Source of the DNA: Polyangiales bacterium
Lineage (GTDB): Bacteria; Myxococcota_A; Polyangia; Polyangiales; JADJQN01
Direction: 5' to 3'
Assembly (NCBI GenBank): GCA_964202905.1
Contig: CAXNJO010000003.1
Coordinates: forward strand, 288,001-352,000
DNA length: 64,000 bases
This document shows, piece after piece, positions 3,385 through 37,824 of this stretch. Under the pieces are notes generated by a model. That model was not told the DNA's origin and did not search any database. It saw nothing but the letters and a program-made list of their open reading frames with translations. The position numbers and the translations under genes are program-made. Within the stretch, counting starts at the first letter, position 1. Every line of letters starts with the position of its first letter.

Positions 3385-6300
3385 ATGAGTCGGTCCGTCG
3401 ATGGCGATACAGCCCGCCTGCGGCGCTCGGTGCAGCGCGCCGCGCTGCTCGCGTGGCTCCTCGGGCTCCTCGGTTGCGAGGGCGCATTCACGCAGCCGCG
3501 CCCGCCCACACCGACGGGAGGCGCGTCGACCCCGTGTGCGGCCCTCGGCGTGCCCGTGCGCCTCGAGCCCGCGCGCGCCGAGACGGTCGCGGCAGGCACG
3601 CTCGTGCTGCGACCGACGGGCGGGCTCGGCGGCTATCGCTTCACGCTCGCGACGAACCAGTCCGGCGCGTCGGTCGATCGCGCGTACGGCGTGTACGTCG
3701 CGGGCGCGCCGGGCGACACGTACGCGGAGCCCGTCGACGTCGTGATCGTCGAGGCGCGCGGCTGCACGGGCCAGGCGAGCGCCTCGATCCGCGTCCACGA
3801 CGCGCTCGCGATCGCGCCCGCCGGCGTCATTGCGGTCTCGCCGGGGCAGCGCGTGGATTTCGCGGCCACGGGCGGCACCGGGCGCTACGCGTGGTCGCTG
3901 CGCGACGCGCGGAGCGGCGGCACGCTGAGCGACGCCGGCGCCTACGTCGCCGGAAGCACCGAGGGACGCGACGTCGTGCGCCTCACGGACGCGACCCTCG
4001 GCGCGACGATCGAGGCGGAGGTCGAGGTGCGCGCGGGCGCAGGGCTCCGCCTCACACCGCAGCGCTTCGTCGTGCCGCTCGGGAGCGTCGTCCCGCTGCC
4101 CGTCGCCGGAGGCAGCGGGACGGTCCGCGCGACCTCGAGCGCAGCGGGCATCGTCACGACCGCCGACGTCGGCGCGACCCTCACCGCCGTCGCCGCGGGC
4201 GACGCGGACGTGACCGTCACCGACACGTACACCGGCGAGCGCGTCATGGCGCGCGTGACGGTCGTCGCGCCCGGCGAGGCCGCGCGTCGACAGCCGGGCG
4301 ATCGCTCGGAATCGCACGTCTTCGGGGGCACCGCCGACCTCGACGGAGACGGCCTCACCGACGTCGTGGTTGGCCTCCCCGACTGGAACGCCGACTGGCT
4401 GCAATCGGGCCTCGTGCTCGGCTTCCGCGGCACGCCGGACGGGCTCGATCCGACGCCCGCCTTCGCGCTGAGCGGCACGACGCGCAGCCAGGAGTTCGGC
4501 CGCTCCGTGGCGCTCGCCGACCTCACCGGCGACGGGCGCATCGACCTCGTCGTCGGCGCACGACGCGACGATCCGACGGGTACGGACGTGGGCACGGTGA
4601 GCGTCTACGCGGGCACCGGCGAGGCGACGTGGTTCGCACCGGCGCCGGCGCGCGAGTTCTTCGGGCGCAGCGGCTTCGACCTCTTCGGAAACGCCGTGGC
4701 GATCTGCGACTTCGACGCCGACGGGCTGCGGGATCTCGCCGTCGCCGCGCCCTTCGCCGAGCTGAGCAGCGCGGTCCGCGACCACGGGCTCGTCTCGATC
4801 TTCCTCGCAGCGTCGCCGCGCTACGAATTCCTCTCGACGCCGAACGTGGTGCTCTCCGGCGCGCTGCCGGGCCCCGATGGCGCGTGGGCGCCCGTGCCGT
4901 CGATGCGCTTCGGCGAAGCGCTCGCTGCGGGCGACTTCGACGGCGACGGGGCGTGCGACCTCGCGGTCTCCGCGCTCTCGCCGGGCACCGCGCGCGTCGA
5001 GGCGGGCGCCGTCTTCCTGTACCGCGGCCGCGCGAGCCGCCCCGGCGCGCCCGGCGGCCTCGACGCGCGGCCCGCGATCTACTGGGCCGAGCTCGCCGAC
5101 GTCGACGCACGCGGGCGCTTCGGACACGCGATCTCGCTCGGCGACACGGACGGCGACGGGCGCGCGGATCTCCTCGCGGGTCATTTTCTGCACGACGCGG
5201 CGAGCGGCAGCGACGCGGGCGCGCTGCACCTCTTCCTCGGGCGCGCGCTCGACGGCGAGGCCACCGTGCCGACGCCGCTCTCCGACGCCGCGTGGATGCT
5301 CGAAGGCGGCAGCGGCGATCGCCTCGGCCAATCGGCGCGCATCCACACCCGCGCCGACGGTCGCGTCGAGTTCGTGAGCGGCGCGCCGCGCGGCGGTGTG
5401 CCGATGGGCCTCTCGCGCCCCGGCGTGTTGCGCGTCCACGCGGCCGACGGCGCCGCGACGCCATCGACGCCCGCGCGCGAGATCGAGGGCGCCGCCGCGA
5501 ACGACTGGCTCGGCATCGGCGCCGGTCCGCTGGGCGATGTCGACGGCGATGGGATCACGGATCTCCTCGCATTTTCGCCCTATCGCGACGGTGCGGAGAT
5601 CGAACGACGACCGCGGCGGGCTCTTCGCGGCGCTCTCCGACGGCGGCCTCGTCGAGCTCACGCTGCCGTTCCGCGCGTCGGGGCAGCGCATCGCACAGGG
5701 GCTCGCGTTCGTCGGCGACCTCGACGGCGACGGCCCGCCGGAACTCGCCGTCGGCGCCCCCAACGCCGACATCGCCGGCCCCGGCGCGAGCGGCTCGAGC
5801 CTCGGCCGCAACGTCGGCGTCGTGCGCGTCTACCGCGGCACCGCGAGCACGCCCTTTCAGACGCTCAGCGGCTTCGTCGGACACGGCGACAGCGACGAGT
5901 TCGGCTGGGACGTGAGCGCCGCCGGCGATGTCGACGGCGACGGGCTTCCCGACCTCGCCGTGCTCGCGCGCTCCGAGGACATCCCGACGACGCTCGACCC
6001 GGCGCTCTACGAGGTCGGCCCGGGCTGCGAGCGCCGCGACAACACGGGCGCCATCTACGTCTTCCGCGGGCGCAGCGATGGCAACTTCGACACGGGGCCC
6101 GCCTTCGTCTACTTCGGCCCCGAGGCGAACCAGCGCATCGAGCGCATCCTCGGCGGCCTCGACCTCGACGGCGACGGCCTCTCCGACCTCGTCGCGGGTG
6201 CGCGCGAGTGGGACGCCGCGGGCACGAACGCGGGCGGCGTCGCGATCGTCCGCGGCCGCGCGCCCGTGGCCGATCGCATCGTCGCGATCTGCACGCCCGA

Positions 6301-7063
6301 CACGCTCGTCCCCGGCGTCGCAGGCGAGCGGCTCGGCGCAGCGCTCGCACGTGCGGGCGACCTCGACGGCGACGGCTGCGACGATCTCCTCGCGGGCGCC
6401 CCGGAGGCCGCACCGACGGGCGCGCCGCGCGTCGCCGGCGCCGTGCGCGTGTTCTTCGGTGCAGGGACCGCCTGCGCCTCGACCGCGGTCCGCAGCGTCA
6501 CGCTCGTCGGCACGAGCGCCGACGCGCAGGCCGGCAGCGCGCTCTCCGACGCGCTCGACGTGACGGGCGACGGCGTCCCGGATTTCGTCGTCGGCGCGCC
6601 GCGCTTTCGCGACGCACGCGGCGGTGTCGGCAGCGCGGTGCTCGTGAGCGGTGCCTACGTGCGCGCTGCGATCGGCGCCGCCGATCCGCGGCCCCTCGTC
6701 GAGCCCGGCGCCGCGCAGCGCGTCTGGACGGGCACGGGCGCCGGCGAGCGGCTCGGCACCTCGGTCGCGCTCGTCGCCGGCCCGGATGGCGCGCCGGTCG
6801 CGCTCCTCGGTGGCCCGTTCGGCAGCACGGCCGGCCGCGTCGACACGGGCTCGGTCGTCGTCGTAACCATCGCACGTGATGGCTTCGGCTCGAACATCGC
6901 GATGCAGATCGCCGGCGAATCCAACGGAATCGGCCAGCTCGGCGAGACGCTCGCTGCCGTCCGCGCCGGCACGCGCACCTTCGTCGCCGTCGGCGCGCCC
7001 TTCTCGAGCCTCGTCGCACGCGAGGACGGCGCCTCGTACGCCTTCACGCTGCCCGCGCCCTGA
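3385..7063 (+). CDS. Large FG-GAP/integrin-alpha repeat lipoprotein with N-terminal Ig-like repeats; one frameshift near 5600
   Basis: Lipobox LLGC; many D[LVF]DGDGxxDLxVGAP repeats continue across ORFs 3385..6879 and 5396..7063, switching frame at ~5599. Confidence 0.85.
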
Positions 7064-7177
7064 GCGCACACGCGCGCATCGCGCCCGGTTCGACGGGAGC
7101 GCGCCCCCCGCGCGCCTCGATTCGACCGCGACACGCCGACGACGGCGTCGCCGCGATCCCCCGCGCCGACTAGGGCC
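7064..7177 (+). repeat. Left copy of the ~113-bp direct repeat flanking the island
   Basis: 7077-7177 matches 23597-23697 with one mismatch; gcgcacacg is also shared at the left edge. Confidence 0.95.
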
Positions 7178-8517
7178 TCGTGCACTTGCGGTGTTGTGAT
7201 TGCGGGCAAGAGCTTGTCGTCGCGTTCTCGTGCAAGAAGCGCGGCTTTTGTCCGTCGTGCGTCGCGCGGCGCATGTCAGACGCGGCCGCGCACCTCGTCG
7301 ACGACATGCTCTTCGAGGTGCCGGCGCGACAGTGGGTGTGCTCGCTCCCGTGGCGACTGCGCATCTTGCTCGGCAACGACAGGAGGCGTTGCGCAGCGGT
7401 GATGTCGGCGTTCACGGGCGCAGTGTCGCGCTCTCTCCGACACCGGGCGAAGGCGCGGCTCGGCTTGCCGACTATGGAGGACGCACACGTCGGCGCAGTG
7501 ACCTTCATCCAGCGCTCGGACTCTGCATTGCGCCTCAACGTTCATGCGCACTCGCTGTTTCTCGATGGCGTGTATGTGCGTGACTCCATCGGCGCGCTCG
7601 AGTTTCACGCGCTCGGCGCGATCGGCAGCGACTCGAGCACGTGTTGCGCTACATGGCGCGGTCGCCTCTGGCGCTCGACCGGCTGTCGCTGCGCGAACAT
7701 GGCGCGCAGGAGCGTAGCGACGAGCACCTTGGGACAGGTCGTCGATCGCTTCAAGAAAGCGTGGCGCGACGGGACGCACGCCGTCGTGCTCTCGCCCGCG
7801 GACTTCATCGCGCCATCGCGCGGAGAGCGCGCGCAGAGAGAGCGAAGCGAGCCGAGCACGCCGAGCACGTGTGTGTGCGCTCGTGCCACCTCCTCGCTGT
7901 CACTGGATGCGCTACCTCGGCGTTCTCGCGGGTCACTCGTTGCTCCGTGCGGAGGTCGTGCCGAAGAGACTGGCCGCGCCGCCAAAGCAACTCTCGCTGT
8001 TCGATGAGATGGACGAGCCGACGACGTCAGCGAAGAGCACCACAAAGAAGACAGCCGAGCCGTCGCGACATCCATGGAGTTGGCTCCTGCAGCGGGTGTT
8101 CGCGGTCGATAACTTGAAGTGCGAGAAGTGCGGCGGCCGGCTGCGCATCGTCGAGATCGCGAAGAAGCCCGACGACATTGCGCGCGTGCTCAACGAGCGC
8201 GGCTATCCGAGAGCGCCGCCCGACGCCGAGCCGCGAGCGTCAGCGTATGGACAGCTGCGGCTCGTGCTCGGTTGAGCGGAGCGGCACGGTGAGCGGAGCG
8301 GCACGGTGAGCGGAGCGGCTGCGCACAGCGCGGTCAGGGAGACGTGCGTCCGCCGCACGAACATGCGCTGAAAGTGGGCGCTCGAGGCACGTCGACGAGC
8401 CTCCGGCAGAGCAGCATCGACGCCGAGATTGTGCTCCACGGCACGCCCGTATAGCGTTCCTCGAGGATGGAGCGTCATGGAGCACGACCGAAAGGGCGAC
8501 CGGATGGGCTATACGCG
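7178..8517 (+). mobile_element. IS91/ISCR-like rolling-circle element remnant, copy 1 (5'-truncated, internally deleted, divergent 3' end)
   Basis: Zn-finger CCDC...AFSCKKRGFCPSC, HUH motif LNVHAH, RYMAR, RYLGVLA, C-terminal CEKCGGRLR; terminus CCGGATGGGCTATACGCG. Confidence 0.9.
8273..8319 (+). repeat. 17-bp tandem repeat (TGAGCGGAGCGGCACGG x2.7)
   Basis: Directly visible at the transposase stop codon. Confidence 0.9.
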
Positions 8518-9000
8518 GCGCTATCGCTCCTGATCGCGGCGTGCGGTTCTTCCCAGGGCTCCGCTGATGGTTCGGTCGCTGACGCTCCGGCCCCTCCCGC
8601 CGCGACGCTTCGCCTCGGCGAGGGCGCGGCGGCGTTCCGCGCCATCGAGGACGGCGACACGCTGCTCGTCGCGATGGGATGTCAGGGAAGTCAGCACGTG
8701 TGGATGTCGCTTCAGAGCGAGGGGCTGGAGCCGCGGCGCATCACCGTCGAACTGTCGCTGTCGCGCGTGAGCGACGGGAGCCTCGTCACGCTCCCTTTCC
8801 GCATCGACCTCTCGTTCACGCCCGATGCATCCGGCGCGTTCGCGCAGATCACGGGTGTGACGCTGCAGGTCCCACTTCCCGACGAAGCGCTCGGGCAGGA
8901 TCTGCTGCTCGTCGGGCGCCTCGCGGATCGAGCGGGTGTGACGGCGACCTCGCAGCGTCGCGTGCGGATCGCGTGGGGGACCGAGATCTGCTCGGTCTGA
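8467..9000 (+). CDS. Hypothetical lipoprotein; its first ~17 codons derive from the IS end
   Basis: Lipobox LIAAC; GC-rich codon usage; the ATG lies inside the oriIS-like end. Confidence 0.6.
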   Translation: MERHGARPKGRPDGLYAALSLLIAACGSSQGSADGSVADAPAPPAATLRLGEGAAAFRAIEDGDTLLVAMGCQGSQHVWMSLQSEGLEPRRITVELSLSRVSDGSLVTLPFRIDLSFTPDASGAFAQITGVTLQVPLPDEALGQDLLLVGRLADRAGVTATSQRRVRIAWGTEICSV

Positions 9001-9012
9001 GCGTCGCGCGTC

Positions 9013-10911
9013 TCAGCGGAGCGGAAATGCACCCCGATAGTACGTGTCGACCGCCTCGACGATGCCACGCGTGCTGATCAAGTAGTTGGTCGGGTGCGAC
9101 GCGGCGCGCGGCAACGAGTCGATCTGGAATCGATCCTCGTACACGCGCTCGGAGCCGTTGAACGCGATGACCGCCGGTGGCGCGAGGTACCCGTGGTGGC
9201 CCACGTCGGCGGCGCTGAGCGCCCAGCGAGCGACGTAGCCATCTGCCGCTATGTCGGACTCGGTCAGGAGAAATGGTGTTGCGCCGTCGTCAAGCACACC
9301 AAGCGCCCCGAGGTACGTCGAGTCCTCGATCACAGGCCACATCGCAGCGCAGTCGCGCGCGAAGAAGATCGCGAGGGAACGCCGCCCCGTGACCGGAATG
9401 CTGACGACTCCGCGCGGCGCCACGACCTGTACCTCCGGGAACGGGTCGCCGGCGGCGGGCCGTTCGGTGGGTGGCGTGCTCGACATCGGCCGGAAGGCGA
9501 CGGGCAGGCTCACGCCCGCGCTACCTCCAGCGCTCGCGAACGTCACGTAGATGGACTCGCCGGGCGTGGCCGCGAGCGGCGCGAGCTCGGCAGGGGTCAG
9601 CGTCATCGTCACCGTCTCCATCGCTCCCACTCGCGCGCTGATGGGCGTCGAGCCGAGGTGCGCGGTCACGTCGAACGGCACATCACCTTCGTTGCGAAAC
9701 GGGATCGTCGCGCCCGCGCCCGCGGGCAGGTAGATGCCTCGCGGCATGTCGATCTCGAGTACATGACCCGTTCGGTCCGTGGCGAAGCGCTCGACGAAGA
9801 TCCAGTCGCTCGTGATGAAATCCGAGCCCGCGAAGCGCCCGGAGAGCATCACGCCGCCGTCGCGGTCGTCTCGATGTCCCGAGGCCGAATAGCCGACGAG
9901 TCTCGGCGGCGTCGCGGAGAGATCGTAGAGGTACGCGCCCGTGAGCGTCGTCAGCGCCAGCAGATCGCCGTTCAGGTCAGCTCCAGTCACGACGGCTTGG
10001 GGACTCACGCTCGCGATCACGGACGGCACGCCACTGAGGTCGACGACCACCGCGCCGGCCGAGCCGAGCGCCACCGCGGCGCGGTCTCCGCGAACGGATA
10101 GGTCCTGGGGCGTGCCGGCGAGCGCCAACTCGTGCGCGACGGTCACTGCCGCCCCCGCGCCGTCGAGCACGAGGAGTCCACGGTCGGCAGACAACGCCAC
10201 GAGGTGCTCGGCGTCCGCGGACACGAACCGCACGTTCCCCGTCACGGCGGTGGCCACCGCGGCACGCAGTCCGCCTCTGGGGTCGATCGCAGAAACCCGC
10301 AGCCCGGCATCGAACTGCGCGAGGTAGAGGTCGTCCCGCACCACCGCCAAGTCGCGCACGCCTGCCGTGGTCAGCGGGAGTGATGCGGCGGCGCGCCACA
10401 CGGGGTGCTCCGGGTCCCCGACGTCGTACGCGGTCACGCGGTCGGACTCGTCGGAGCTGCAGTACATCGTCGACGATGCGCCATGGATGGCGAGGGTCGT
10501 GCAGCGAGGTCGCGGGGTCTCGTCCGGGCGGACGAGCGTCGCGAAGATGGACCCGTCCGGCTCGAGCGCGAGCGTCGTGAAAGAGTCCCAGCTGTTGGCG
10601 ACGTACGCGACGCTCCCGTGGATCGTTACCTCGCCGAGGTGCCCACTCGGAATCGGGATCTCGTATTGCTTGCGCAGCGGGAGACCGGAGAGCACAGGCT
10701 CGATCATTGATCCATCCGAAGCCGTGCCGCCATCTCCCGCGTCCGTGGAGCCGTCCGCCGGCGAGCCGTCCCCCGTGTTCGCGTCGTCGTCTGCGTCGCT
10801 CGCGCCTGCGTCGCCAGAGGCGACCGCCTCGTTCCCATCACACGCCACGAACAGGACCGCGACCAGCGAGAGAACGCTCCAGGAGAGACGACATTCTTGG
10901 ACCGCGAGCAT
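9013..10911 (-). CDS. Lipoprotein with LVIVD-like beta-propeller repeats and a C-terminal thioredoxin/peroxiredoxin-like domain
   Basis: Lipobox FVAC; repeats such as VRGDRAAVALGSAGAVVVDL; C-terminal GDPFP...IFFARDC...HPTNYLISTRG. Confidence 0.65.
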   Translation of the reverse strand: MLAVQECRLSWSVLSLVAVLFVACDGNEAVASGDAGASDADDDANTGDGSPADGSTDAGDGGTASDGSMIEPVLSGLPLRKQYEIPIPSGHLGEVTIHGSVAYVANSWDSFTTLALEPDGSIFATLVRPDETPRPRCTTLAIHGASSTMYCSSDESDRVTAYDVGDPEHPVWRAAASLPLTTAGVRDLAVVRDDLYLAQFDAGLRVSAIDPRGGLRAAVATAVTGNVRFVSADAEHLVALSADRGLLVLDGAGAAVTVAHELALAGTPQDLSVRGDRAAVALGSAGAVVVDLSGVPSVIASVSPQAVVTGADLNGDLLALTTLTGAYLYDLSATPPRLVGYSASGHRDDRDGGVMLSGRFAGSDFITSDWIFVERFATDRTGHVLEIDMPRGIYLPAGAGATIPFRNEGDVPFDVTAHLGSTPISARVGAMETVTMTLTPAELAPLAATPGESIYVTFASAGGSAGVSLPVAFRPMSSTPPTERPAAGDPFPEVQVVAPRGVVSIPVTGRRSLAIFFARDCAAMWPVIEDSTYLGALGVLDDGATPFLLTESDIAADGYVARWALSAADVGHHGYLAPPAVIAFNGSERVYEDRFQIDSLPRAASHPTNYLISTRGIVEAVDTYYRGAFPLR

Positions 10912-10989
10912 GGCTGCATACGCTACCACGCAGCCGCTCTCGAGCGGGTGTACTGTCGCCCCGTCTCGAACCCGACTCCCACCGCCGCC

Positions 10990-12114
10990 GCCGGGCAAAG
11001 GCACGTCTCGGCCTGCCGAGCGTCGACGATGCGCATGTTGGCGCAGTGACGTTCATTCAGCGCAGCGACTCCGCATTACGCCTCAACGTGCATGCGCACT
11101 CGCTGTTTCTCGATGGCGTCTATGTGCGTGATTCCATCGGCGCGCTCGAGTTTCACGCGCTCGGCGTGCCCACGTTCGAAGAGGTAGAGCAGGTCGCCGA
11201 GTGGACGCACGCGCGCATCGTGAAGGTCCTGCTGGCGCACGGCCGTACGCTCGACGGACTCGGCGATGAGCCGGCGGAGCTCACGCACGATCAGCCGGTC
11301 CTCGCCTCGTGTTTCGCGGCGTCCGCGGCGGACATACAGCTGCTCGGCGACAACGCCGGTCAAATGACGCTCAAGCTCGTGCAGCCTGTGCGCGCCGTGC
11401 GTTCAGAGGCGCGCGCGCTCGCGGACTTCGGCGGCGTGAACGTGCACGCGGAGGTGGCGATAGACGGCCGCGATCGGCAGCGACTCGAGCACGTCCTTCG
11501 CTACATGGCGCGCCCTCCGCTGGCGCTCGACCGGCTCTCGCTTCGCGAACATGGCGCGCAGGAGCGTAGCGACGAGCACCTTGGGGCAGGTCTTGTACCG
11601 GTTCAAGAAGGCGTGGCGCGACGGGACGCACGCCGTGGTGCTCTCGCCCGAGGACCTCATCGCCAGGTTGTGCGCGCTGGTACCCCCACCGAGGTTCCAT
11701 TTGATTCGCTACCTCGGTGTGCTGGCGGGGCACTCGTCGCTCCGTGCCGACGTGGTCCGGCTGCGGATCGTCGAGATCGCCAAGAAGCCCGATGATGTGT
11801 CACGCGTGCTCGCCGAGCGCGGCTGGTCCCGAGCGCCGCCTCGTGGACCGCCTCGCGCCGAGGTGCCGCTGCTCGCGCACGGGCAGCTGCGCCTCGCCTT
11901 CCAGTGAGCTCGACGATTCGAGCGGTTGCGCAGAGCGCGGCCAAGGAGACGTGCGGCCGCCGGGCGAAAATCACCTGAAAGTGAGGGTTCCCGTGTCGCC
12001 GAAGACCACACGGCAGAGGCCCATCAGCGCCGAGATTGTGCTTCGGAGCACCCTCGCGGAGGGTTCACCGGTGCATGGAGCGGGGACGAATCACCGATCG
12101 GATGTCCTACGCGC
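10990..12114 (+). mobile_element. IS91/ISCR-like remnant, copy 2 (5'-truncated, internal deletion at ~11757) with oriIS-like end
   Basis: Near-identical to copy 3; HUH motif; terminus GATCGGATGTCCTACGCGC. Confidence 0.9.
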
Positions 12115-12335
12115 CCTGCTCGGCTTCCAGTTCTGAGTCCGTCGGGGGGCCGCTCGGCTGCGTGCCGCCGCGTCCGACGCAAGGCGAGGCGGGAGAGCGG
12201 GAGTTGCGGTCCTCACCGCGCATTGGGTGCGTCGCCCGTCACCACGCATACCGGGATAGAAAGCGCGTGGTGCCCGTACGCGGACGACAATCCACCACGC
12301 GCTGCGATTCACGACACGAACGTCAGCGAAACCGG

Positions 12336-12797
12336 TCAGTATCGCAGACTCACTCGCATGGTCACCGTTTCATTCGCGGTGACGGTGAATTTCGACTCAT
12401 CCCAGGTCGGCGCGGACAGTGCGTACGTGTGATTGTTCGACACGCCATATCCCTCGCTCGGAACGCCGAAGAGGTTCTTGTCGAGGCGCCGATTCGCATT
12501 CTCGTCATGCACGACCGCGATGGCGTAGGTGCCGGGCGGAACGCCCTCCCACGCGCAATCGGCCACCGTGCCGCGGATGGTGGCCCGTACCGTCCGCACG
12601 CCGTTGCCGTCCGGGAAGGTCTCTGGCTTCGAGAACAGCCTGCATTGCAGCGCTCCGCGGGTGTTGCGAAAAGTCGCGACACGGACCCGAACGCTTCCGC
12701 CGTTCTCCTGCGCGGCGACCTGGGGCCACGAGGCGACCAACGGCAGGATCGCCGCGAGGGTGCCGACGAACATGGACAAGGGTTTCCGGTTGATCAT
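12336..12797 (-). CDS. DUF2141 family secreted protein
   Basis: GTYAIAVVHDENANRRLDKNLFGVPSEGYGVSNN signature; AGGAG RBS. Confidence 0.85.
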   Translation of the reverse strand: MINRKPLSMFVGTLAAILPLVASWPQVAAQENGGSVRVRVATFRNTRGALQCRLFSKPETFPDGNGVRTVRATIRGTVADCAWEGVPPGTYAIAVVHDENANRRLDKNLFGVPSEGYGVSNNHTYALSAPTWDESKFTVTANETVTMRVSLRY

Positions 12798-12829
12798 GGT
12801 GGTGTCTCCTGATGTTCCAAACATTCGGT

Positions 12830-13636
12830 TCATGGTGTAGGTGGTGGCAGCGCCGGCAGCGTCGCGTCCCCGCGCACGAGCCATGCGGAGAGGCGCGCGG
12901 TGAGCGCGCGCGGCGAGAAGCGCGCTCCTTGCGCCATGACCCAGTTCCTCCAACCGACGACGTAGGTCGGTGCGGTGCCGTCGAGTGCGGCGAGCGCTGC
13001 CGATACGACCTCTGCGACCGAAGCGGGGCGCTGGAAGATGCGACTCGACCGGAGCTCGGTGCCCGCTGCGTCGATGAACGGTGTTTCGACCGGACCGGGG
13101 CACAGCGCGAGCACACGCAGGCCGCGCCCGCGATATTCGGCCCAGAGCGCTTCGGACAACGAGAGCACGAACGCCTTCGTCGCCCCATACGCGCTCATGA
13201 ACGGCGCGGGCTGAAAGGCGATGGTGGAAGCGACGTTGAGGACGGTGCCGCCGCGCACGAGGAGAGCGGGGGCGAACAAGCGCGTCAGCTCAGTGAGCGC
13301 CACGACGTTCACGTAGAGCTGTTCCGACAGATGGGACGTCGGCTCGTCGTGGAAGGCGCCGAAATAGCCGAGGCCGGCGTTGTTCACGAGCACGTCGATC
13401 GCGAGTCCCTGGCGCGTCACCTCGTCGAAGACCGTCCGCGCCGCCCCCGGCTTCGAGAGGTCCGACGCGAGCACCGTCGCCTTTCCCCCTGCCGCGCGCA
13501 CGCGCGCGGCGAGCGCGTCGAGCCGCTCTTGCGTGCGCGCCACGAGTACGACGTGGTCGCCCCGCGCGCCCAACGCGAGCGCGAGCGCCTCTCCGATTCC
13601 CGACGATGCACCGGTGATCAAAACGATCTTCCCCAT
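12830..13636 (-). CDS. SDR family oxidoreductase
   Basis: TGASSGIG, NNAG, catalytic YGATK. Confidence 0.95.
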   Translation of the reverse strand: MGKIVLITGASSGIGEALALALGARGDHVVLVARTQERLDALAARVRAAGGKATVLASDLSKPGAARTVFDEVTRQGLAIDVLVNNAGLGYFGAFHDEPTSHLSEQLYVNVVALTELTRLFAPALLVRGGTVLNVASTIAFQPAPFMSAYGATKAFVLSLSEALWAEYRGRGLRVLALCPGPVETPFIDAAGTELRSSRIFQRPASVAEVVSAALAALDGTAPTYVVGWRNWVMAQGARFSPRALTARLSAWLVRGDATLPALPPPTP

Positions 13637-13724
13637 ACTGACGACTCCTAGGCACTTCGAGACCGCCGCGGGGACACCCAGCGGCGCGCGTGGTGCGCGA
13701 TGACGCGAGCGGCCCGCGCGTTGC

Positions 13725-13766
13725 GACTTGACAGTGTCTACCAGCCGAAGATGACGGTGTCAAGTC
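13725..13766. promoter_or_regulatory. Tandem TetR-type operators overlapping divergent -35 boxes
   Basis: Imperfect palindromes CTTGACAGTGTCTAC and GATGACGGTGTCAAG; outer inverted repeat GACTTGACA/TGTCAAGTC between the divergent SDR and TetR genes. Confidence 0.75.
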
Positions 13767-13785
13767 CGTGTGGTAGAAGCAGCCG

Positions 13786-14358
13786 ATGGCCGCGGAAACG
13801 CTGAAGCAACAGGTGCTCGACGCGAGCATCGCGCTCGTCGCCGAGAGTGGACTGGCGGGGCTCTCCATGCGCGAGGTCGCGCGTCGCGCCGGCGTCAGCC
13901 ACCAGGCGCCCTATCATCACTTCGCCGACAAGGCGGCGATCGTGGCAGCGCTCGTCGAGCGCGGGTTCGCGATGCTCACGCTCCGACTCGAGGCGGCCCG
14001 TGACGCGGGCCCGGCCGAGCGTGCGCTCGAGCGAGCGGGGCGCGCCTACGTCCACTTCGCGCTCGCCGAGCCTGTCTACTTCCGGCTGATGTTCCGACCC
14101 GAGCTCTCGGGTACGCACCCCGTTCCCCCAACGGAATCAGCCGGTGCGAAGGCATTTTCGGTCTTGCAGTCCCTCGTCGACGTGCGTCTCGGGCCCCGCG
14201 CGCGTCCATCGCGCCGTGAAGCGCTCACGTCCTTGAACTGGGCGGTCGTGCACGGCCTCGCGACGCTGTTGCTCGACGGGCCCCTCGCGCACGTCGAGGA
14301 CCGGGAGCAGCACGTCGATCAGGTGCTGCGCCTCTTTTCCGAGGCGACCTCGGACTGA
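13786..14358 (+). CDS. TetR/AcrR family regulator (WHG-type C-terminus)
   Basis: LSMREVARRAGVSHQAPYHHFADK HTH; WAVVHGLATL. Confidence 0.95.
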   Translation: MAAETLKQQVLDASIALVAESGLAGLSMREVARRAGVSHQAPYHHFADKAAIVAALVERGFAMLTLRLEAARDAGPAERALERAGRAYVHFALAEPVYFRLMFRPELSGTHPVPPTESAGAKAFSVLQSLVDVRLGPRARPSRREALTSLNWAVVHGLATLLLDGPLAHVEDREQHVDQVLRLFSEATSD

Positions 14359-14389
14359 TCGCCCTGCCCGACCTCGGAGTTCGCCGACT

Positions 14390-15902
14390 CCGGCTTTTGT
14401 CCGTCGTGCGTCGCGCGCCGCATGTCAGACGCGGCCGCGCACCCCGTCGACGACGTGCTCCCCGAGGTGCCGACGCGACAGTGGGTGTGCTCGCTGCCTT
14501 GGCGACTGCGCATCTTGCTCGGCTACGACAGGAGGCTTTGCGCAGAGGTGATGTCGGCGTTCACGGGCGCAGTGTCGCGCTCGCTCCGACACAGGGCGAA
14601 GGCGCAGCTCGGCCTGCCGAGTGTCGACGATGCGCATGTTGGCGCAGTGACGTTCATTCAGCGCAGCGACTCCGCATTACGCCTCAACGTCCATGCGCAC
14701 TCGTTGTTTCTCGATGGCGTCTACGTGCGTGATTCCATCGGCGCGCTCGCGTTTCACGCGCTCGGCGTGCCCACGTTCGAAGAGGTAGAGCAGGTCGCGC
14801 AGTGGACGCACACGCACATCATAAAAATCCTGCTGGCGCACGGCCGCAAGCTCGACGGACCCGGCGATGAGCCGGCGGAGCTCACGCACGATCAGCCGGT
14901 CCTCGCCTCGTGTTTCGCGGCGTCCGCGAGCGGACGTACAGCTGCTCGGCGACAACGCCGGTCAACAGACGCTCAAGCTCGTGCAGCCTGTGCGCGCCGT
15001 GCGTTCAGAGGCGCGCGCGCTCGCGGAGTTCGGCGGCGTGAACGTGCACGCGGAGGTCGCGATAGATGGTCGCGATCGGCAGCGACTCGAGCACGTTCTG
15101 CGCTACATGGCGCGCCCTCCGCTGGCGCTCGACCGGCTCTCGCTTCGCGAACATGGCGCGCAGGAGCGTAGCGACGAGCACCTTGGGGCAGGTCTTGTAC
15201 CGGTTCAAGAAGGCGTGGCGCGACGGGACGCACGCCGTCGTGCTCTCGCCCGAGGACTTCATCGCCAGGTTGTGCGCGCTGGTACCCCCACCGAGGTTCC
15301 ATTGGATGCGCTACCTCGGTGTGCTGGCGGGGCACTCGTCGCTCCGTGCCGACGTGGTCCCGAAGAAGGCTGCCGCACCGCCTGAGTCGCCGAAGCAGCT
15401 CCCGCTGTTCGACGAGTCGGCCGAGCCGACGACGTCCGCGAAGGCAGCCGCGACGAAGACGGCCGAGCCGTCGCGGCATCCGTGGTCCTGGGTGCTGCAG
15501 CGGGTCTTCGCCGTCGACGTCTTGAAGCGCGAGAAGTGCGGCGGCCGGCTGCGGATCGTGGAGATCGCGAAGAAGCCCGATGATGTGTCACGCGTGCTCG
15601 CCGAGCGCGGCTGGTCCCGAGCGCCGCCTCGTGGACCGCCTCGCGCCGAGGTGCCGCTGCTCGCGCACGGGCAGCTGCGCCTCGCCTTCCAGTGAGCTCG
15701 ACGATTCGAGCGGTTGCGCAGAGCGCGGCCAAGGAGACGTGCGGCCGCCGGGCGAAAATCACCTGAAAGTGAGGGTTCCCGTGTCGCCGAAGACCACACG
15801 GCAGAGGCCCATCAGCGCCGAGATTGGGCTTCGGAGCACTCTCGCGGAGGGTTCACCGGTGCATGGAGCGGGGACGAATCACCGATCGGATGTCCTACGC
15901 GC
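14390..15902 (+). mobile_element. IS91/ISCR-like remnant, copy 3 (most complete, still 5'-truncated and frameshifted) with oriIS-like end
   Basis: GFCPSCVARRM, PTRQWVCSLP, HUH motif, RYMARPP, RYLGVLA; terminus as in copy 2. Confidence 0.92.
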
Positions 15903-16333
15903 GCGCGCTACGAGCGTGTGACGTGCCCTTCGTCGCCCTCGAAATGAACGTCGACAACGTCCGCAAGGGGCGCGCCGAGGGGCATCCCGCGTATTACGGG
16001 GACGCGACGAGCGAGGAGGCGCTGCGCCACGCACACGTCGAGCACGCGCGGCGGGTCGTGCTGCTGATGAACGACCCGCAGGCGGCGCTGCGCGTGGTGG
16101 ATACGCTGCGACGGGTCGCGCCGAACGTGCCGGTGCTGATGCGGACACGCTATCTCGCCGATCGCGCGACGCTGCTGGCGCTCGGCGCGAGGGATGTGGT
16201 CGTCGAGGAGGTCGAGGGAGCCGCCGAGGTCGTGTCGACGCTGCTGCGGAGCGTGGACGTGCCGGAGCCGACGATCGACGAGCGCTTGCGCGCGCTGCGG
16301 AGCGCGACGGGGGCGAGCGCGTTTGCAACCTGA
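15903..16333 (+). pseudogene. 3' fragment of a CPA2/Kef-type cation:proton antiporter (TrkA_N/RCK domain)
   Basis: VPFVALEMNVDNV...YYGDATSEEALRHAHVEHAR; begins abruptly at the IS terminus. Confidence 0.8.
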
Positions 16334-16416
16334 CGCGACGCCGGCCACTGCGGCGCTTGTCTGGATGCGCGGGCTTCGGCATCCTTCACGCCATGCGCTC
16401 GGATCGCGGAACGCTC

Positions 16417-17601
16417 ATGCATCGGTCGCCGTGCATCCCCCGCGGGGTTGGGTTCGCCATCGTGCTGCTCGTCGCGGGCTGCGGGCTCACGAAGCGTGAG
16501 GCCGTGACGAAACTCGATGCGGCGCTCGGGGCCATCGCACCGGGCGAGGTGCACGGCGCCGCGATGTGGGTAGACGCGCCGCGACACGGCATCCGGCAGG
16601 GTTTTGCGCATGGCGTCGCGGATGCGGCACGCGGGACGGCGATGACGGTGGACACACCATTTCTCTCGGCGAGCGTCGGCAAGCTCTTCGTGGCGACGGC
16701 CGTGCTCAAGCTCGTGGCGGATGGCCGTCTGTCGCTGACGGATCCGGTCACGCGGCACGTGCCGCGCAGCGAGCTCGCCGGGATCCCGATCGCGGGTGGC
16801 GACGCGGCCTTCGACCGCTTGACGGTGGGGATGCTCCTCGCGCACCGGAGCGGGCTGCCGGACTATTTCTCGGATCCGTCGCGCGATGGGGCGCCGCGGC
16901 TCTTCGATCGGATCGTGCGGGAGCGTGACCGGGTGTGGACGCGCCGCGCAATGCTCGATTACGCGCGGGCGCACTACGCACCGGTCGGTGCGCCGGGGGC
17001 GACATTCCACTATTCCGACACCAACTACGATCTGCTCGGGATGGTGCTCGAGGGCGTCGCGCAGAAACCCTTTCATGCGGCGGTGCGCGAACTGGTGATC
17101 GCGCCCGTCGGATTGCGGGCCACCTGGTATCACGCCTTCGAGCAAGCGCCTGCGGAGGCCGCGCCCGTGGCGGATGTGTGGGTGAAGAATGCGAATCTGC
17201 GCGGGGCGCCTGCGCTCTCCGTCGATCAGGCGGGAGGCGGGCTCGTGACGACGCTCGCGGACCTGCGCACGTTCATGCGGTCGCTCGTCGCGGGGCGGCC
17301 CATCCCGCTCTCGTCTCTCGACACGGATTACACCCTCGATGCGATGCACGACGGCATCGATGTGGGCCGTTGTGCGTGGCGCATTCGCCCGAGCGGCGTG
17401 TTTTTCGCGCTCGCGGGGATGCCCGATCTCGTGGGGCACTCTGGCGCGACGGGCGTCTGGGCCTATTACGCGAAGGATTGGGATGCCGTGTTCGTCGGCG
17501 CAGTGAGCGATTCGCGTTGGCAGGAGAAGCACATCGAGTTCCTGCTGCGCGAGGTGCTTCCGGTGCTGGCGCGGACACCGATGCAGGACACGGTGCGCTG
17601 A
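16417..17601 (+). CDS. Serine hydrolase of the beta-lactamase/D-Ala-D-Ala carboxypeptidase family, lipoprotein
   Basis: SVGK (SxxK), LLAHRSGL, YSDTNY, GHSG; lipobox VAGC. Confidence 0.9.
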   Translation: MHRSPCIPRGVGFAIVLLVAGCGLTKREAVTKLDAALGAIAPGEVHGAAMWVDAPRHGIRQGFAHGVADAARGTAMTVDTPFLSASVGKLFVATAVLKLVADGRLSLTDPVTRHVPRSELAGIPIAGGDAAFDRLTVGMLLAHRSGLPDYFSDPSRDGAPRLFDRIVRERDRVWTRRAMLDYARAHYAPVGAPGATFHYSDTNYDLLGMVLEGVAQKPFHAAVRELVIAPVGLRATWYHAFEQAPAEAAPVADVWVKNANLRGAPALSVDQAGGGLVTTLADLRTFMRSLVAGRPIPLSSLDTDYTLDAMHDGIDVGRCAWRIRPSGVFFALAGMPDLVGHSGATGVWAYYAKDWDAVFVGAVSDSRWQEKHIEFLLREVLPVLARTPMQDTVR

Positions 17602-17650
17602 GCGGCGACGCCGCCATGGACATGTCGTCGGGCGACTCACGCCCTGCGTC

Positions 17651-18062
17651 ATGCAGACGAGGAGACCCGTGGCCGAGAGACGCCAGATTCCCCCGAGTGC
17701 GCGTCTGATGATTCTGTTTCGGGAGACGGGAGTCCCGGCGCTGTGGATCGCCCTGTGGCTGCCCTTTCTGGTGCACTCGTTTGCCGACAGCGCCTACGTG
17801 CTCTGGTTTCGCGACACCGTCGATCTCCCTGCGCGTATCGTGTCGGCGGGCTTCACCTCCGAGAGTCGCGGTCGGACCGTGCCGCGGTGGGAGGGATATC
17901 GCGTCGAGGCGGAGTTCACGTATCAAGGGCGGTCTTGGCGCACCACCGGGGATCTCACCGGTCTCCCGAGCGACGGCAGGGTGCGCGTACGTGTTCCGCG
18001 CACACGACCTGATCTCGCGGTCGCCTTCGACGGAGGGGGGCCGTGGTATCGACAGACGCCTG
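17651..18062 (+). pseudogene. Hypothetical membrane protein, 3'-truncated by IS remnant 4
   Basis: TM segment plus beta-rich domain; the frame runs into IS-derived sequence at ~18063. Confidence 0.5.
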
Positions 18063-18485
18063 TGTGGCTCCTGGCTGCTGCAGCGGGTCTTCGCCGTCGA
18101 CGTCTTGAAGTGCGAGAAGTGCGGCGGCCGGCTGCGGGTCGTCGAGATCGCCAAGAAGCCCGACGACGTGTCGCGCGTGCTCGCCGAGCGCGGCTGGTCC
18201 CGAGCGCCGCCTCGTGGACCGCCTCGCGCCGAGGTGCCGCTGCTCGCGCACGGGCAGCTGCGCCTCGCCTTCGAGTGAACTCGACGATTCGAGCGGTTGC
18301 GCAGAGCGCGGCCAAGGAGACGTGCGGCCGCCGGGCGAAAATCAACTGAAAGTGAGGGTTCCCGTGTCGCCGAAGACCACACGGCAGAGGCCCATCAGCG
18401 CCGAGATTGTGCTTCGGAGCACCCTCGCGGAAGGTTCACCGGTGCATGGAGCGGGGACGAATCACCGATCGGATGTCCTACGCGC
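18063..18485 (+). mobile_element. IS91/ISCR-like remnant, copy 4 (last ~70 codons plus oriIS-like end)
   Basis: WLLQRVFAVDVLKCEKCGGRLR; ~205-bp 3' end near-identical to copies 2 and 3. Confidence 0.92.
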
Positions 18486-18777
18486 CGAGCACGTAGCCAG
18501 TGATCACCACCAGCGCCATCTGCAGCGTAAACGGCAGCAGCACCCAGAAGCCCTTGCCCCACAGCTCCACCACCTCGACCGGAGGCGTCGGTGTCGCGAA
18601 CATCGCCGCGAGAACGACGACGATGGTGCCTATGAGCGCGAACACGAACGCATCCGGCACGAAGCGCTCCGCCGCGTCCGTCAGCCGCGCAGCGACGCGC
18701 TCGAACAACGGCGCGCGCGTTCCAACGAGCTTAGCGGTAGACGGAGACGGCGTACGCGGAGGAGCGTCGGCGGACAC
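18478..18777 (-). pseudogene. atoE: 5' fragment of a short-chain fatty acid transporter (AtoE/TIGR00366 family)
   Basis: ERFVPDAFVFA...WGKGFWVLLPFTLQMALVVITGYVL; the TAG stop is supplied by the IS terminus. Confidence 0.8.
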
Positions 18778-18819
18778 GCCGGCGACGGAAACACTCGGGC
18801 GGCGATGGGGGCGCGCTCG

Positions 18820-19266
18820 CTACGAACCGGCGAGGGGGTCCTCCACCCACCACGAGCCGGCGTCGAAGACCGGATTCAGCAAGTGCTCGCGACCGTCGGC
18901 AAACATGACTCTGATGAACGGCGACTCGTCCCACCCCCACGAACGCTTGAGCGTTGCGATGACGGCGGCCGCCTCCCAGCGCTCGCGTTTGGATTTCGCG
19001 CGGCAGGAGATTGTCGCGGCGCCCCGGGTTTCAGAGCGCACCGCGGACACGACGTCGTGCGGGAAGAGCGACTCCAGCGCGGCGTCGTCGCTCTCGAGTA
19101 CGAACGGCTCGCTCGCCGGAGCGATCACCACGTGCGACCGCGACTCTCCGCGATACGACACGACGGCGCGCACTGCTTGGACCGCTCCGGACAGGCCGGT
19201 GGTCTCAGCCGGCCAGTGGCCCAAGTCCTGAGTCGTGATCTCGATTGTGTAGGCTCGCGAAGTCAT
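18820..19266 (-). CDS. Hypothetical protein
   Basis: 148-aa ORF with protein-like composition, lower GC. Confidence 0.5.
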   Translation of the reverse strand: MTSRAYTIEITTQDLGHWPAETTGLSGAVQAVRAVVSYRGESRSHVVIAPASEPFVLESDDAALESLFPHDVVSAVRSETRGAATISCRAKSKRERWEAAAVIATLKRSWGWDESPFIRVMFADGREHLLNPVFDAGSWWVEDPLAGS

Positions 19267-19374
19267 CGGAACGGCGGTCGGTCTCACGTGCGAGATTCTC
19301 ACACACCGCGTCGCAATGCCCCGCGCGTGGAGCTGGGCGGGGGAGGTATCTTGAAAACGTGGGTACAGCGCGTC

Positions 19375-19640
19375 GGACCCGTCCCCTCGCGCAGCTGGCC
19401 GACCTCCTGATCGAGTGGCGGCTGCAGCTTGAGCACCACGTCGGCGCCCCACGCGGTGGCGCGATCGACGAGCGCGGCGCCGGCGGCCTCGTACTGGGTG
19501 TCGGGGTAGCTGGCGATCTCGCCGGCCCCGCGCTCGAGCTGGACGTCCCAGCCGGCCTTCACCCACCGCGCCACGACCTGTGGCGACGCTGCGACCCGCC
19601 GCTCCTCGGGACGTATCTCCTTGACGATACCTAGCTTCAT
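19375..19640 (-). pseudogene. pntA: 5' fragment of NAD(P) transhydrogenase alpha subunit (AlaDh/PNT N-terminal domain)
   Basis: MKLGIVKEIRPEERRVAASP...ERGAG...ADVVLKLQPP; similarity is lost after ~87 aa. Confidence 0.8.
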
Positions 19641-19725
19641 GCGGGGGGCGGAGGTTGCCACCCGCCGCCCCCGCACGGAAGCCTTGACCCTCAACTTGTG
19701 CCCCCCCACGTGCGACACTGGCGGC

Positions 19726-20125
19726 ATGTCCGACTCTGCCGACCCAGGGGCGCTCGCGGCGCTGCAGGCCGAGGTCCTGGAGCTGCGCGAGGCCGTCAGC
19801 GCGCTGCAGGGAGAGCTGCGGCGGGCTCAGCACCGCGTGGACCTCACCATGCGGGGCCAGCTCCGGTGCAGAGCGTGCGGCTGCCGCCAGATCGCCCACG
19901 CCCTGCGCGTGCTCGACCGCGCCGACGGCAACACCCGGGACGCGATGGCCCTGTACCAGCCCAGCTGGTGGAGCACCCGCACCGTCGGCGAGCTCGAGGC
20001 CTACATCTGCACCCGCTGCGGCTCGGTGGAGTGGTGGATCACAGGACCCGGGCTCGCTGGTCGAGCACGCCGAGCACCTCGAGATCCTCGATGGCGATCG
20101 CGTCGGCGAGGGCCCGTACCGGTGA
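19726..20125 (+). CDS. Hypothetical Zn-ribbon protein (frameshift near 20045)
   Basis: Coiled-coil N-terminus, CRACGC and CTRCG; the C-terminus EGPYR* lies in another frame. Confidence 0.55.
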
Positions 20126-20325
20126 CCGGCGCGGGGACCCGGTACGACGCCGACGCGGCGGGCCGGCTGACCCGGATCACCGACCGCGCTGGCGCGGTCC
20201 ATGCCGAGCTATCCTGGAACGGCGACGCGCTGATCGCGCTGGTGGTGCCGGGCGCGAGCGTCCACGGCGAGGTCCATGACGATCCCCTGCTCGGGGCGTC
20301 CCACGCGATCCAGCACGCGGTCGAG
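20122..20325 (+). pseudogene. 5' fragment of a hypothetical protein truncated by an IS3 end
   Basis: GTGA-coupled start; sequence switches to an IS3-like tail at ~20325. Confidence 0.4.
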
Positions 20326-20419
20326 GCGGGGAATCTGCCCATCTCTCGCTTCGCGCGCATGTCCGCGAAGCAGGCAGCAGCGAGCTAGGCAACCTGTCTA
20401 CTGAACCGGGGCAAGCTCA
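20325..20419 (+). mobile_element. IS3-family right-end remnant
   Basis: Transposase-like tail ...KQAAAS* followed by CTGTCTACTGAACCGGGGCAAGCTCA, an IS3-type terminal IR ending in CA. Confidence 0.6.
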
Positions 20420-20559
20420 GTGTCGCGACGAGCACCCCGGAGCCCCTCGAGCGCCCCGGCGTGCTGGTGCGCGCTGCCGACGCGGCCCTGTACCAAGCCA
20501 AGGAACGGGGCCGCAATCGCGTGGTCTTGTCCGTAGCCGTCCGGCGACCCCCGTCGTGA
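20420..20559 (+). pseudogene. 3' fragment of a GGDEF domain protein
   Basis: Manual translation VAT...LVRAADAALYQAKERGRNRVV. Confidence 0.8.
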
Positions 20560-20578
20560 CAAGCGCGCGGATCGACGT

Positions 20579-21237
20579 TCAGTTCGCGGCGGCCCAGGCG
20601 GCGGGGAGCAAGTCGTCGATGGCGTTCGCGGGGTGATCCTGCACGCGGGCGAGGACGTCGGAGAGGTAGTCGAAGGGGTTGATGCCGCGCGATTCGCAGG
20701 TGGCGACGAGCGAGTAGAGGCCGGCGAGGCTTTGGCCGGCGGCGACGTCGCCGACGAAGAGGTAGTTCTTGCGGCCGAGCGCGATCCTACGCAGCGCGCG
20801 CTCGGAGGCGTTGTTGTCGAGCGGGACGCGGGCGTCGTCGAGGAAGACGCCGAGCTCGTCCCACTGGCCGAGCGTGTAGCGGATGGCGGCGCCGATCGGG
20901 CTCTTCGGCGGTTGCTTTGCGTGCTGCGCGTCGAGCCAGTGCTTGAAGCGTTCGCGGATCGGGCCTGCGCGCTGTTTCCGAAACTCCAATTTGGCGGCGT
21001 CAGAAAGTTTGCGTTCCGCGGCCTCGTGTTCGACGCGATAGAGCGCGGTGATCAGGTCGAGCGCCTCCTGCGCGACGGGCGCGGTCTTGATCGACTCGAA
21101 GAAGTAGCGGCGCACGTGCGCATGGCAGGCCGCGCGGCGACGACTCGAGACCTTCTCGATGTCGTTGTAGCCGCTGTAGCCATCGACGAGCAGCACGCCT
21201 TTCGTGTCTTCGAGAAGCGCCTTCGGCGTCGCGCCGC
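20579..21237 (-). mobile_element. IS66-family transposase (TnpC), C-terminal fragment
   Basis: LLVDGYSGY, ACHAHVRRYF, PLDNNASERALRRIALGRKNYLF, GINPFDYLSDVL. Confidence 0.92.
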
Positions 21238-22074
21238 TCAGGGGACCGGCTCGGCGGTGGCCGCGGCGCGCGCGGAGGCCCTCGCCGTGCCGCCCCCCTC
21301 GGAGACTGGCACCGCGATCTCGAAGTCCATGTCGAACCGCATGTCGACGAGCCAACCGTCCGAGAGGCGGACGAAGAAGTCCCCCTCGACGCTCCCCCTC
21401 CCTCCACCGCGCTCCGTCTCCGCGACCGGTCGCTCGTCCACCACCGCGAGCGTGCCGGCCAAGCGGATGTGCGCGTGCAGCTCGTCGCCGCGCGGCTCGA
21501 CCGACACGAGCGTGTAGGCCGCATCGACCGTGTAGCGGTCGGTGCCTCCGTTCGGGTTCCAGCGGAGCGTGCCCTGCCACGCGTCGCCGATCGCGACCGG
21601 CGCCTCGGGATACAGCTCGAACACAGGCTGGGTGTTCGTCGCCGTGCCCTCCGCGGTGGAGGCGGGCCGCCCGCGCTCGTCGAGCAGGCGGATCGAGGGC
21701 GGTGAACACGGTCCGTCGCTCGGCTCGGGGGCCAGCCTCCGCATCAGCTCGCAGCGCGACTGCACCTCGAGGAGACCCGCATTGCTGACGCCGACGATTC
21801 GCTGGACGAAGCTGAACTCCGCCGCGGGGCCCCCTATCCCGTTGATGTTGTAGGCGGTGCGAAGCCGCATTCGCATCGCGGTGCCGAGGCTCGGCTGCAG
21901 GCGCAGCCGGTACGTCGCGGACGGGTCACCCGCGAGCCCGTTCGATGCGCTTCGGGCGGTGGCCTCGCCGCCCGCAGCCCCGGCGGCGCCGCAGCCGAGG
22001 AGGAGCGCCGCAACGGCCGCGAGCCGGGGTTCGACGCGCGGACGAAGGGATGTTTCGCTGCACCGTGTGTTCAT
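21238..22074 (-). CDS. Hypothetical lipoprotein (beta-rich)
   Basis: Lipobox LLGC; 278-aa ORF. Confidence 0.6.
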   Translation of the reverse strand: MNTRCSETSLRPRVEPRLAAVAALLLGCGAAGAAGGEATARSASNGLAGDPSATYRLRLQPSLGTAMRMRLRTAYNINGIGGPAAEFSFVQRIVGVSNAGLLEVQSRCELMRRLAPEPSDGPCSPPSIRLLDERGRPASTAEGTATNTQPVFELYPEAPVAIGDAWQGTLRWNPNGGTDRYTVDAAYTLVSVEPRGDELHAHIRLAGTLAVVDERPVAETERGGGRGSVEGDFFVRLSDGWLVDMRFDMDFEIAVPVSEGGGTARASARAAATAEPVP

Positions 22075-22659: not shown

Positions 22660-22680
22660 GCTGCGCGGAGCCGCCCGCGC

Positions 22681-37822: not shown

Positions 37823-37824
37823 GC

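Follow-up and report, generated by a model that had tools for sequence, protein, structure and literature searches.

A chromosomal chain of dead, same-facing ISCR-type ends in a Polyangiales bacterium that may have grown by gene capture and recombination

ISCR elements are blamed for the spread of many resistance genes. Integrons and integrase-less attC clusters, for their part, hold co-oriented repeats that alternate with variable cargo. Complex class 1 integrons contain tandem units of ISCR1, cargo and the 3' conserved segment (3'-CS), and the 3'-CS is duplicated (PMC7707992, PMC3575428). In the ISCR28 "sandwich", reported second-hand in PMC12772301, a gene lies between a remnant with an origin end (oriIS) and an ISCR copy. 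The sdpA cluster of Sphingobium herbicidovorans MH has IS91-like repeats on a megaplasmid together with duplicates of one cluster, and an 11-kb circle was observed (PMC5737581). IS801 of Pseudomonas syringae leaves miniature right-end fragments that serve as recombination regions, and its transposase acts in trans (PMC3189936). Here we analyzed a window, a 64,000-nucleotide stretch of the chromosome of a Polyangiales bacterium (G000:C3:288001-352000 of genome G000, whose assembly is 94% complete), in which a self-comparison revealed four ISCR-type (IS91-family) transposase remnants, all facing the same way (+ strand) and interleaved with unrelated DNA blocks. The best reading is known ISCR-style capture, here chromosomal, integron-free and with ordinary cargo. 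More specifically, we propose that this stack of dead ends in a duplicated flank was built by rolling-circle capture and recombination into resident copies, to which, on the sequence evidence, we assign a probability of roughly 0.6. Since the layout is already known for ISCR elements (PMC7707992, PMC12772301, PMC5737581), the locus is a variant and no new system.

Codon numbers for the starts of the remnants refer to an intact relative of 514 codons from metagenome locus L075:

7174-8516, + strand: remnant 1, from codon ~71, with an internal deletion and inserts of 31 nt and 55 nt; subtype A
10985-12114 (start 10985/91), + strand: remnant 2, from codon ~160, with a 31-nt insert and an internal deletion; 5' part subtype A-like
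14391-15902, + strand: remnant 3, from codon ~93, with frameshifts of 1 nt and 31 nt; subtype B' end
18064-18485 (start 18064/71), + strand: remnant 4, from codon ~446; subtype B' end

The 5' truncation falls at four different points, and all four remnants, each at least 420 nt long, retain the origin end. Matches to PF14319 and PF04986 were found on the remnants in a Pfam scan. The non-coding 3' end extends 241 bp past the stop codon in remnant 1 (subtype A, terminating in GGCTATACGC) and 207 bp in remnant 2 (subtype B', terminating in GTCCTACGCGC). In pairwise comparisons, copies 2-4 are identical at 205, 204 and 202 of these 207 bp; copy 1 is 67-69% identical to them, and the similarity among copies drops off abruptly 207 bp (copies 2-4) or 241 bp (copy 1) past the stop. 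The terminator end (terIS) is absent from the four window copies; a common 5' boundary was seen by eye on contigs C5, C17 and C2 and at loci L064, L075 and L076. Neither an intact transposase nor an integrase was present among 54 scanned open reading frames (ORFs; 27 from positions 188-26074 and 27 of the 46 candidates from 26117-63967), no sul1 or qacE family was found in them, and their sole other transposase trace was an IS66 remnant. The original prediction, made from the letters of the window, had described four co-oriented, 5'-truncated HUH remnants that keep their 3' ends, a near-identical end of ~205 bp in copies 2-4 that diverges in copy 1, and a lack of intact transposase or integrase. 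These descriptions hold, the last for the ORFs scanned; its extent for the array (7178..18777) does not, as the real end lies at ~23697 and a flanking direct repeat falls outside those coordinates.

The prediction had also advised looking for an intact transposase elsewhere in the genome, and one is present twice: an uninterrupted 520-codon frame on C6 and an identical frame on C15. Its protein shares 88% identity with that of L075 and 38% with both ISCR1 and ISCR2. Compared with the latter two, it keeps the zinc cysteines (CxxC), the NVHAH motif, the HUH pair H196/H198 and the RYxxRP tyrosine Y333; transposases of the ISCR subgroup have one catalytic tyrosine. The best NCBIfam profile is ISCR clade Ia at 307 bits, below its curated cut-off of 925, and the IS91 equivalog scored 84.5, below its cut-off of 125. 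In its location and final bases, the 3' end of the intact copy is similar to the ISCR1 end: ends lie 207-241 bp past the stop, compared with 232 bp in ISCR1, and are CTATAC-like (GGCTATACGC and GTCCTACGCGC, compared with CCTATACCC). Because of this resemblance, we refer to the end as oriIS, a predicted function. IS91 proper has a fixed target tetranucleotide beside oriIS (PMC13181058). Next to the origins studied here there was none, as 32 distinct ends gave no consensus beyond a first C in 17 of 32. Of 201 genomes examined in the class, 112 have homologous transposases. Upstream, the C6 and C15 copies (L011 and L019) have 830 bp or more in common, and they diverge directly after the origin.

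The flanking repeat comprises two features, which we call X and X':

6891-7177, + strand: X, the left flank copy, with the 3' end of an FG-GAP repeat gene, intergenic DNA and the last codons of a converging gene, Y
22681-23697, + strand: X', the right flank copy, in two pieces (22681-22752 and 23585-23697)

X joins remnant 1 via a 4-nt overlap, GGCC. The first piece of X' is 93% identical to 6891-6962 and the second 97% identical to 7064-7177; 832 bp of other DNA separates them, and X' continues into gene Y (- strand; stop at 23690-23692). A circle with flank, remnant, origin and cargo that recombined into the flank would leave such a layout, as in the duplication of the 3'-CS. In genome G024, the homologues of the two flanking genes converge at a distance of 7.2 kb, and no IS91-type match lies between; Y has six homologues there, so that the arrangement gives modest support as an element-free site, and a translated-DNA comparison gave mostly noise. 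An exact 24-nt flank pattern found no empty site in metagenome contigs (0 matches), and no close match of the flank was found in 30 relative genomes. The FG-GAP gene (3385-7063) is itself split over two frames near 5400-5640, by either a frameshift or a sequence error; its G024 homologue is a single 1217-aa ORF.

The locus has several features in common with ISCR1 in complex class 1 integrons: the transposase is related (38%), the origin end is equally distant and its terminal motif similar, cargo lies downstream of that end, units are repeated, and terminator-side DNA is duplicated (X/X', and also on C13 and C17). The likeness of transposase and origin end and the flank duplication support the ISCR analogy that had been drawn for this DNA. 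By contrast, the present array is chromosomal, with no integron, integrase or sul1/qacE segment among the scanned ORFs; every copy is truncated and dead, the repeated homology is the remnant itself, the cargo is ordinary accessory DNA, and two element subtypes occur in one array. As in the ISCR28 sandwich and ISCR2/ISVsa3, two consecutive origins enclose a gene, and one of them sits on a remnant; unlike those structures, the window has a row of four origins, the array has no intact member, and no resistance gene was called. The Sphingobium cluster shares an environmental host, non-resistance cargo and IS91-type ends that were proposed as recombination substrates and capture agents, whereas our locus is chromosomal, has unrelated blocks and yielded no circle. 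IS801 fragments are likewise 5'-truncated pieces that retain the origin end; they are, however, dispersed and start at a set tetranucleotide, while here the pieces form chains and no tetranucleotide follows the origin (32 different junctions). Co-oriented repeats that alternate with variable cargo are also shared with integrons and integrase-less attC clusters, but no tyrosine integrase was found here, the repeats are transposase remnants of unequal length, and cargo is cut mid-gene on both strands. Neither chromosomal multi-unit arrays of dead ISCR ends nor origin-targeted integration was the subject of any paper found, in a search that most subscription journals fell outside.

The DNA between and behind the remnants comprises the following:

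8517-10984: block 1, a lipoprotein-like gene and a gene (- strand) for a ~630-aa secreted-type protein; GC 0.694
12115-14390: block 2, DUF2141 (- strand), SDR (- strand) and TetR (+ strand) genes and possible last codons of a lost gene; GC 0.681
15903-18063, + strand: block 3, a C-terminal TrkA_N fragment of a KefB/KefC-like antiporter, a beta-lactamase-fold serine hydrolase and a membrane-protein gene; GC 0.692
18486-22680: block 4, a 5' fragment of atoE (- strand), a pntA-like fragment, an IS3-type end, an IS66 remnant and orphan genes; GC 0.707
20347-20420: the IS3-type end in block 4
20533-21232: the IS66 remnant in block 4

At a minimum of three origins (1, 3 and 4), the adjoining gene is cut and its remainder is missing. 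Origin 1 adjoins the lipoprotein-like gene, the ORF of which (8467-9000) begins within the element end; origin 3 adjoins the tail of the KefB/KefC-like gene; origin 2 is followed by ALLGFQF-stop, possibly the tail of a lost gene (read by eye); and the atoE fragment beyond origin 4 covers residues 2-74 of the 453 of SCFA_trans (AtoE), about the first fifth of the gene. At its 3' end, the membrane-protein gene of block 3 is truncated by remnant 4, and a paralogue on C2 continues past that point. The DNA on the left of each remnant is unrelated. Together, the genes cut at origins, the unrelated DNA on the left and the gene cut by remnant 4 indicate that no remnant is a simple insertion. Profile scans confirmed the earlier labels DUF2141, SDR, TetR, antiporter fragment (TrkA_N), serine hydrolase and atoE fragment, and the view of the blocks as unrelated, non-contiguous cargo was supported; the label "LVIVD" was not, as the ~630-aa protein of block 1 matched no Pfam family at E<=0.01. 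Among 300 other genomes of the order, 13 have homologues of this protein, and the block 1 gene pair was not found together in seven homologue loci. The serine hydrolase scores under all NCBIfam beta-lactamase cut-offs shown and has no homologue at E<=1e-60 in the 300 other genomes. No close copy of any cargo gene was found elsewhere in the 94% complete assembly, the best reaching ~60% amino-acid identity. Block GC is 0.68-0.71, compared with 0.75 and 0.72 in the two flanks.

"Cassette-like", as the locus was first described, is too strong: cargo genes lie on both strands and are interrupted, the boundaries of the units are not fixed, and no sigma-70-like promoter was found (0, with 1.0 expected). 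There was no Rfam match, and the origin hairpins, which were not compared with shuffled sequence, are not distinctive. We noted ATG codons within the element end (8467-8516 and 15890-15902), in frame with the cut lipoprotein gene and the cut TrkA_N fragment, that could restart them. We also noted, by eye, the apparent last residues of a GGDEF domain after the IS3-type end (20347-20560).

Could the chain have been created by assembly? Under this explanation, repeats joined unrelated contigs or strains were mixed. We compared the window with public short-read contigs from four runs of two studies, leaving unused the runs with a share below 0.2. Public contigs bridge origin 1 (8391-9220) and origin 4 (18400-18693), and a contig from the second study bridges origin 3 (15626-16320); origin 2 is bridged with just 29 nt on the element side. 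Among the 32 of 852 pieces listed, none crosses a 5' (cargo-remnant) junction or two units, and the best runs may be the source sample, both of which leave some room for misjoining. Nevertheless, unique indels and substitutions distinguish the four copies, the same layout occurs in other assemblies, and in run X1 the contigs from both flanks and the blocks have similar depth (4.3-6.4), a measure of depth and not of copy number. Because B' ends are confined to the window, mis-ordering could swap blocks 2 and 3 but could not create the chain. An artefact is therefore unlikely, and for the chain as a whole we regard it as very improbable, with unit order and phasing less certain.

Origin ends across the genome were found with an end profile and a search for a second lineage, and one duplicate on the overlapping contigs C17/C18 was removed. 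Eighteen of the 22 distinct ends fall into four clusters (four in the window, four on C17, four on C2 and six on C13), each wholly co-oriented, with odds of 2^-14 under independence. Within the assembly, subtype B' ends occur in the window only. Flank duplications also enclose the C13 (91%) and C17 (98%) clusters, giving three of four clusters. The C2 cluster contains two copies of a 1601-nt unit, alike at 1594 positions, on either side of an 11-kb block; this block matches a native C5 locus with 80-86% identity. The repeated unit, the third of the cluster, includes 450 bp of the DNA trailing the first origin and adjoins a 5.2-kb block with 86% identity to C5. Apparently, a copy left, picked up a relative's chromosome and returned, which is the best internal sign of departure, capture and return.

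These clusters bear on another explanation, an insertion hotspot, in which independent insertions into a dispensable island were oriented by the replication strand and fused by deletions, so that elements mark seams and carried no cargo. The IS3 and IS66 debris in block 4, the many other insertion sequences in the C13 and C17 clusters, deletions with short overlaps, the mixed orientation in G001, a weak strand bias and the conclusion of PMC3189936 on IS801 fragments all fit such a history. It accounts poorly, however, for four of four origins being intact to the last base while four of four 5' ends are lost, for flank duplications in three of four clusters, for the C2 round-trip unit and for the multiplication of frameshifted copies. 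Also against it, both orientations are seen on one contig (C2, C3) with no clear skew switch, the skew being noisy. We judge a hotspot improbable.

Several observations on these clusters stand apart. The C2 cluster (L016/L017; G000:C2:666848-683425) is a non-autonomous composite element with a third origin type, and its cargo of AcrB-type efflux, kinase, FHA-ABC transporter and YceI genes duplicates the C5 locus at 80-86%. The six co-oriented ends on C13 (L012/L013; G000:C13:102752-124271) belong to a second, distant IS91-type lineage and terminate in GGTTACCCTC; two copies have the same 5' boundary, and no intact copy of this lineage was found in the assembly. A 1.3-kb inverted copy at a C13 origin was rejected as cargo, being another insertion sequence inserted in the origin. 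C17:1-5936 and C18:2-5937 overlap at 99.98%, and these contig ends are probably adjacent or duplicated in the assembly.

The copies also carry a record of their history. A 31-nt frameshifting insert is common to copies 1-3 and a C17 copy, and is also found in two relative records, L021 and L024; the shared frameshift implies that dead copies were multiplied. A dispersed repeat was considered as its source and ruled out, as the five true matches in the genome are all in these transposase copies (two loose matches lie elsewhere). The inserts at ~7700-7730, 7815-7870, 11552-11583 and 15153-15184 (31 nt and 55 nt) are of a similar GCGCAG..AGCG.AGCGA type and not dispersed. The 5' parts of copies 2 and 3 are 90-96% identical to the C17 (subtype A) copy while their 3' ends are 66-74% identical to it, and these 3' ends are 95-100% identical to each other and to copy 4. 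For remnant 3, the 5' part is 90-94% identical to subtype A and the 3' end 95-98% identical to remnant 4. An A-like 5' part joined to a B' 3' end implies recombination inside the transposase gene, and these chimeras support the earlier suggestion that incoming DNA rejoined inside the resident transposase.

Based on these features, we propose three steps. First, a copy or a 5'-truncated piece would land beside genes in another chromosome, and loss of the terminator, by deletion or early termination, would make read-through the rule. Second, a transposase acting in trans (intact relatives on C6 and C15) would start at oriIS and copy the remnant with neighbouring DNA, and the circle would close with an origin-cargo joint cut mid-gene. 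Third, the first circle would enter by homologous recombination through flank X, giving X...X', and later units would enter via shared transposase or origin DNA, giving the same orientation and chimeric copies. To our knowledge, cargo arrival behind oriIS and unit stacking are a model, with no demonstrated pathway. The same capture-plus-recombination model is stated for ISCR in PMC7707992. From the original prediction, the role of dead ends as an accretion platform is probable, backed by the ISCR analogy and recombination inside the transposase and strengthened by the flank duplication, whereas the cassette-like character is overstated.

Several results weigh against this proposal. X' is interrupted and just 93-97% like X, and the intact gene is just 79-91% identical to copies 2-4. 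The assembled contigs contain no circle, no empty site and no junction in which an origin rejoins its own block. Copies 1 and 2 have internal deletions with 2-3-nt overlaps, a sign of ordinary decay that could also explain the lost 5' ends, and most IS801 fragments are described as rearrangement products (PMC3189936). Origin stubs of 16-42 nt and origin duplications of 20-60 nt are too short for the third step unless trimmed later. Orientation is mixed in the G001 clusters, with one contrary copy each in G088 and L081. Finally, the element sense strand is the G-rich strand at six of nine sites, a weak and noisy skew, so that a replication-strand bias may add to the co-orientation.

We next consider other genomes and metagenomes. 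Seven regions of six genomes were picked from the match list, and three had no array. G088 has five co-oriented ends and one inverted, and G071 and G096 have two co-oriented copies each. In G182 (L034/L035; G182:C11:94110-117427), a transposase is followed by four more identical, bare 106-bp ends, five in all, with one 5' boundary and a spacing of 3-11 kb, the most cassette-like array among those seen. The end pattern matched metagenome contigs 80 times, and 22 of these matches are true ends at 15 distinct loci; the other 58 were dropped as chance. Where a metagenome locus had a second, separate remnant, orientation agreed in five of six; in viral contigs the origin pattern was absent (0 matches). 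L064 and L076 agree at 94.6% over 2523 nt, up to the origin end, where they part exactly; either the first cargo has changed at one locus, or a unit of flank plus element has moved. At L105 (3435-3533), the origin end is tripled by 60-nt and 20-nt duplications. L075 (7066-9448) carries DUF2141, SDR and TetR homologues (51, 68 and 64%) 3.6 kb behind the origin of an intact element of the same lineage, in the gene order of the window plus one extra gene.

Some of these loci suggest origin-targeted integration, in which the HUH transposase would nick a resident oriIS and join an incoming single-stranded unit of cargo and origin there, with no need for RecA or long homology, so that the origin acts much like an attachment site. 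The 20-nt and 60-nt duplications at L105 end exactly at the element end, and G088 has a 60-nt one; yet short duplications of this kind can form in cis during rolling-circle replication. Stubs of 16-20 nt and 42 nt within arrays, the bare G182 ends and the divergence of L064 and L076 at the nick also fit, as opposed to the window remnants, all of which are at least 420 nt. We then looked at the left flanks of truncated copies. From 44 rows, 14 were removed (seven full 5' ends, two cut by other insertion sequences, one after another origin, four doubtful) and six added; 34 of these 36 junctions passed filters. The left flank ends in TC/GC, as the origin does, at 13 of 34 junctions (7.4 expected, P 0.022), and at 20 of 34 with a 1-nt slide (13.1 expected, P 0.013). 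Among the window copies, the fit is strict for 3 and 4, takes one base of slide for 2 and holds for 1 only within its 4-nt overlap. This motif is weak, was chosen after inspection of the data and is lost with a slide of 2-3 nt (P 0.12). The 5' ends of truncated copies share no first tetranucleotide, and a CCGG start motif was considered and dropped. Moreover, the chimeric transposase genes and X...X' need homologous recombination regardless. Origin-targeted integration is thus unlikely in our view. Equally doubtful is its broadest form, that resident oriIS copies are the attachment sites at which ISCR-type HUH transposases, needing neither a tyrosine integrase nor RecA, assemble integron-like gene arrays in environmental chromosomes, by a widespread single-strand accretion in which strains differ from the nick onward and products range from long remnants, as in the window, to bare 106-bp ends, as in G182.

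With capture and recombination preferred, the window alone is a decayed example of a known capture style; the pattern is genome-wide and cross-species. The layout occurs four times in one genome, in two or more element lineages and around ordinary cargo, which suggests that gene hoarding of this kind is common in the environment and that the clinical ISCR arrays represent a special case of it. The presence of an intact transposase together with matching dead ends means that recombination-driven and origin-targeted growth can be distinguished by experiment. Outside the array, GC is lower at positions 35176-41644, which hold parts of a type I restriction-modification system, the N6 methylase of which is split into two ORFs.

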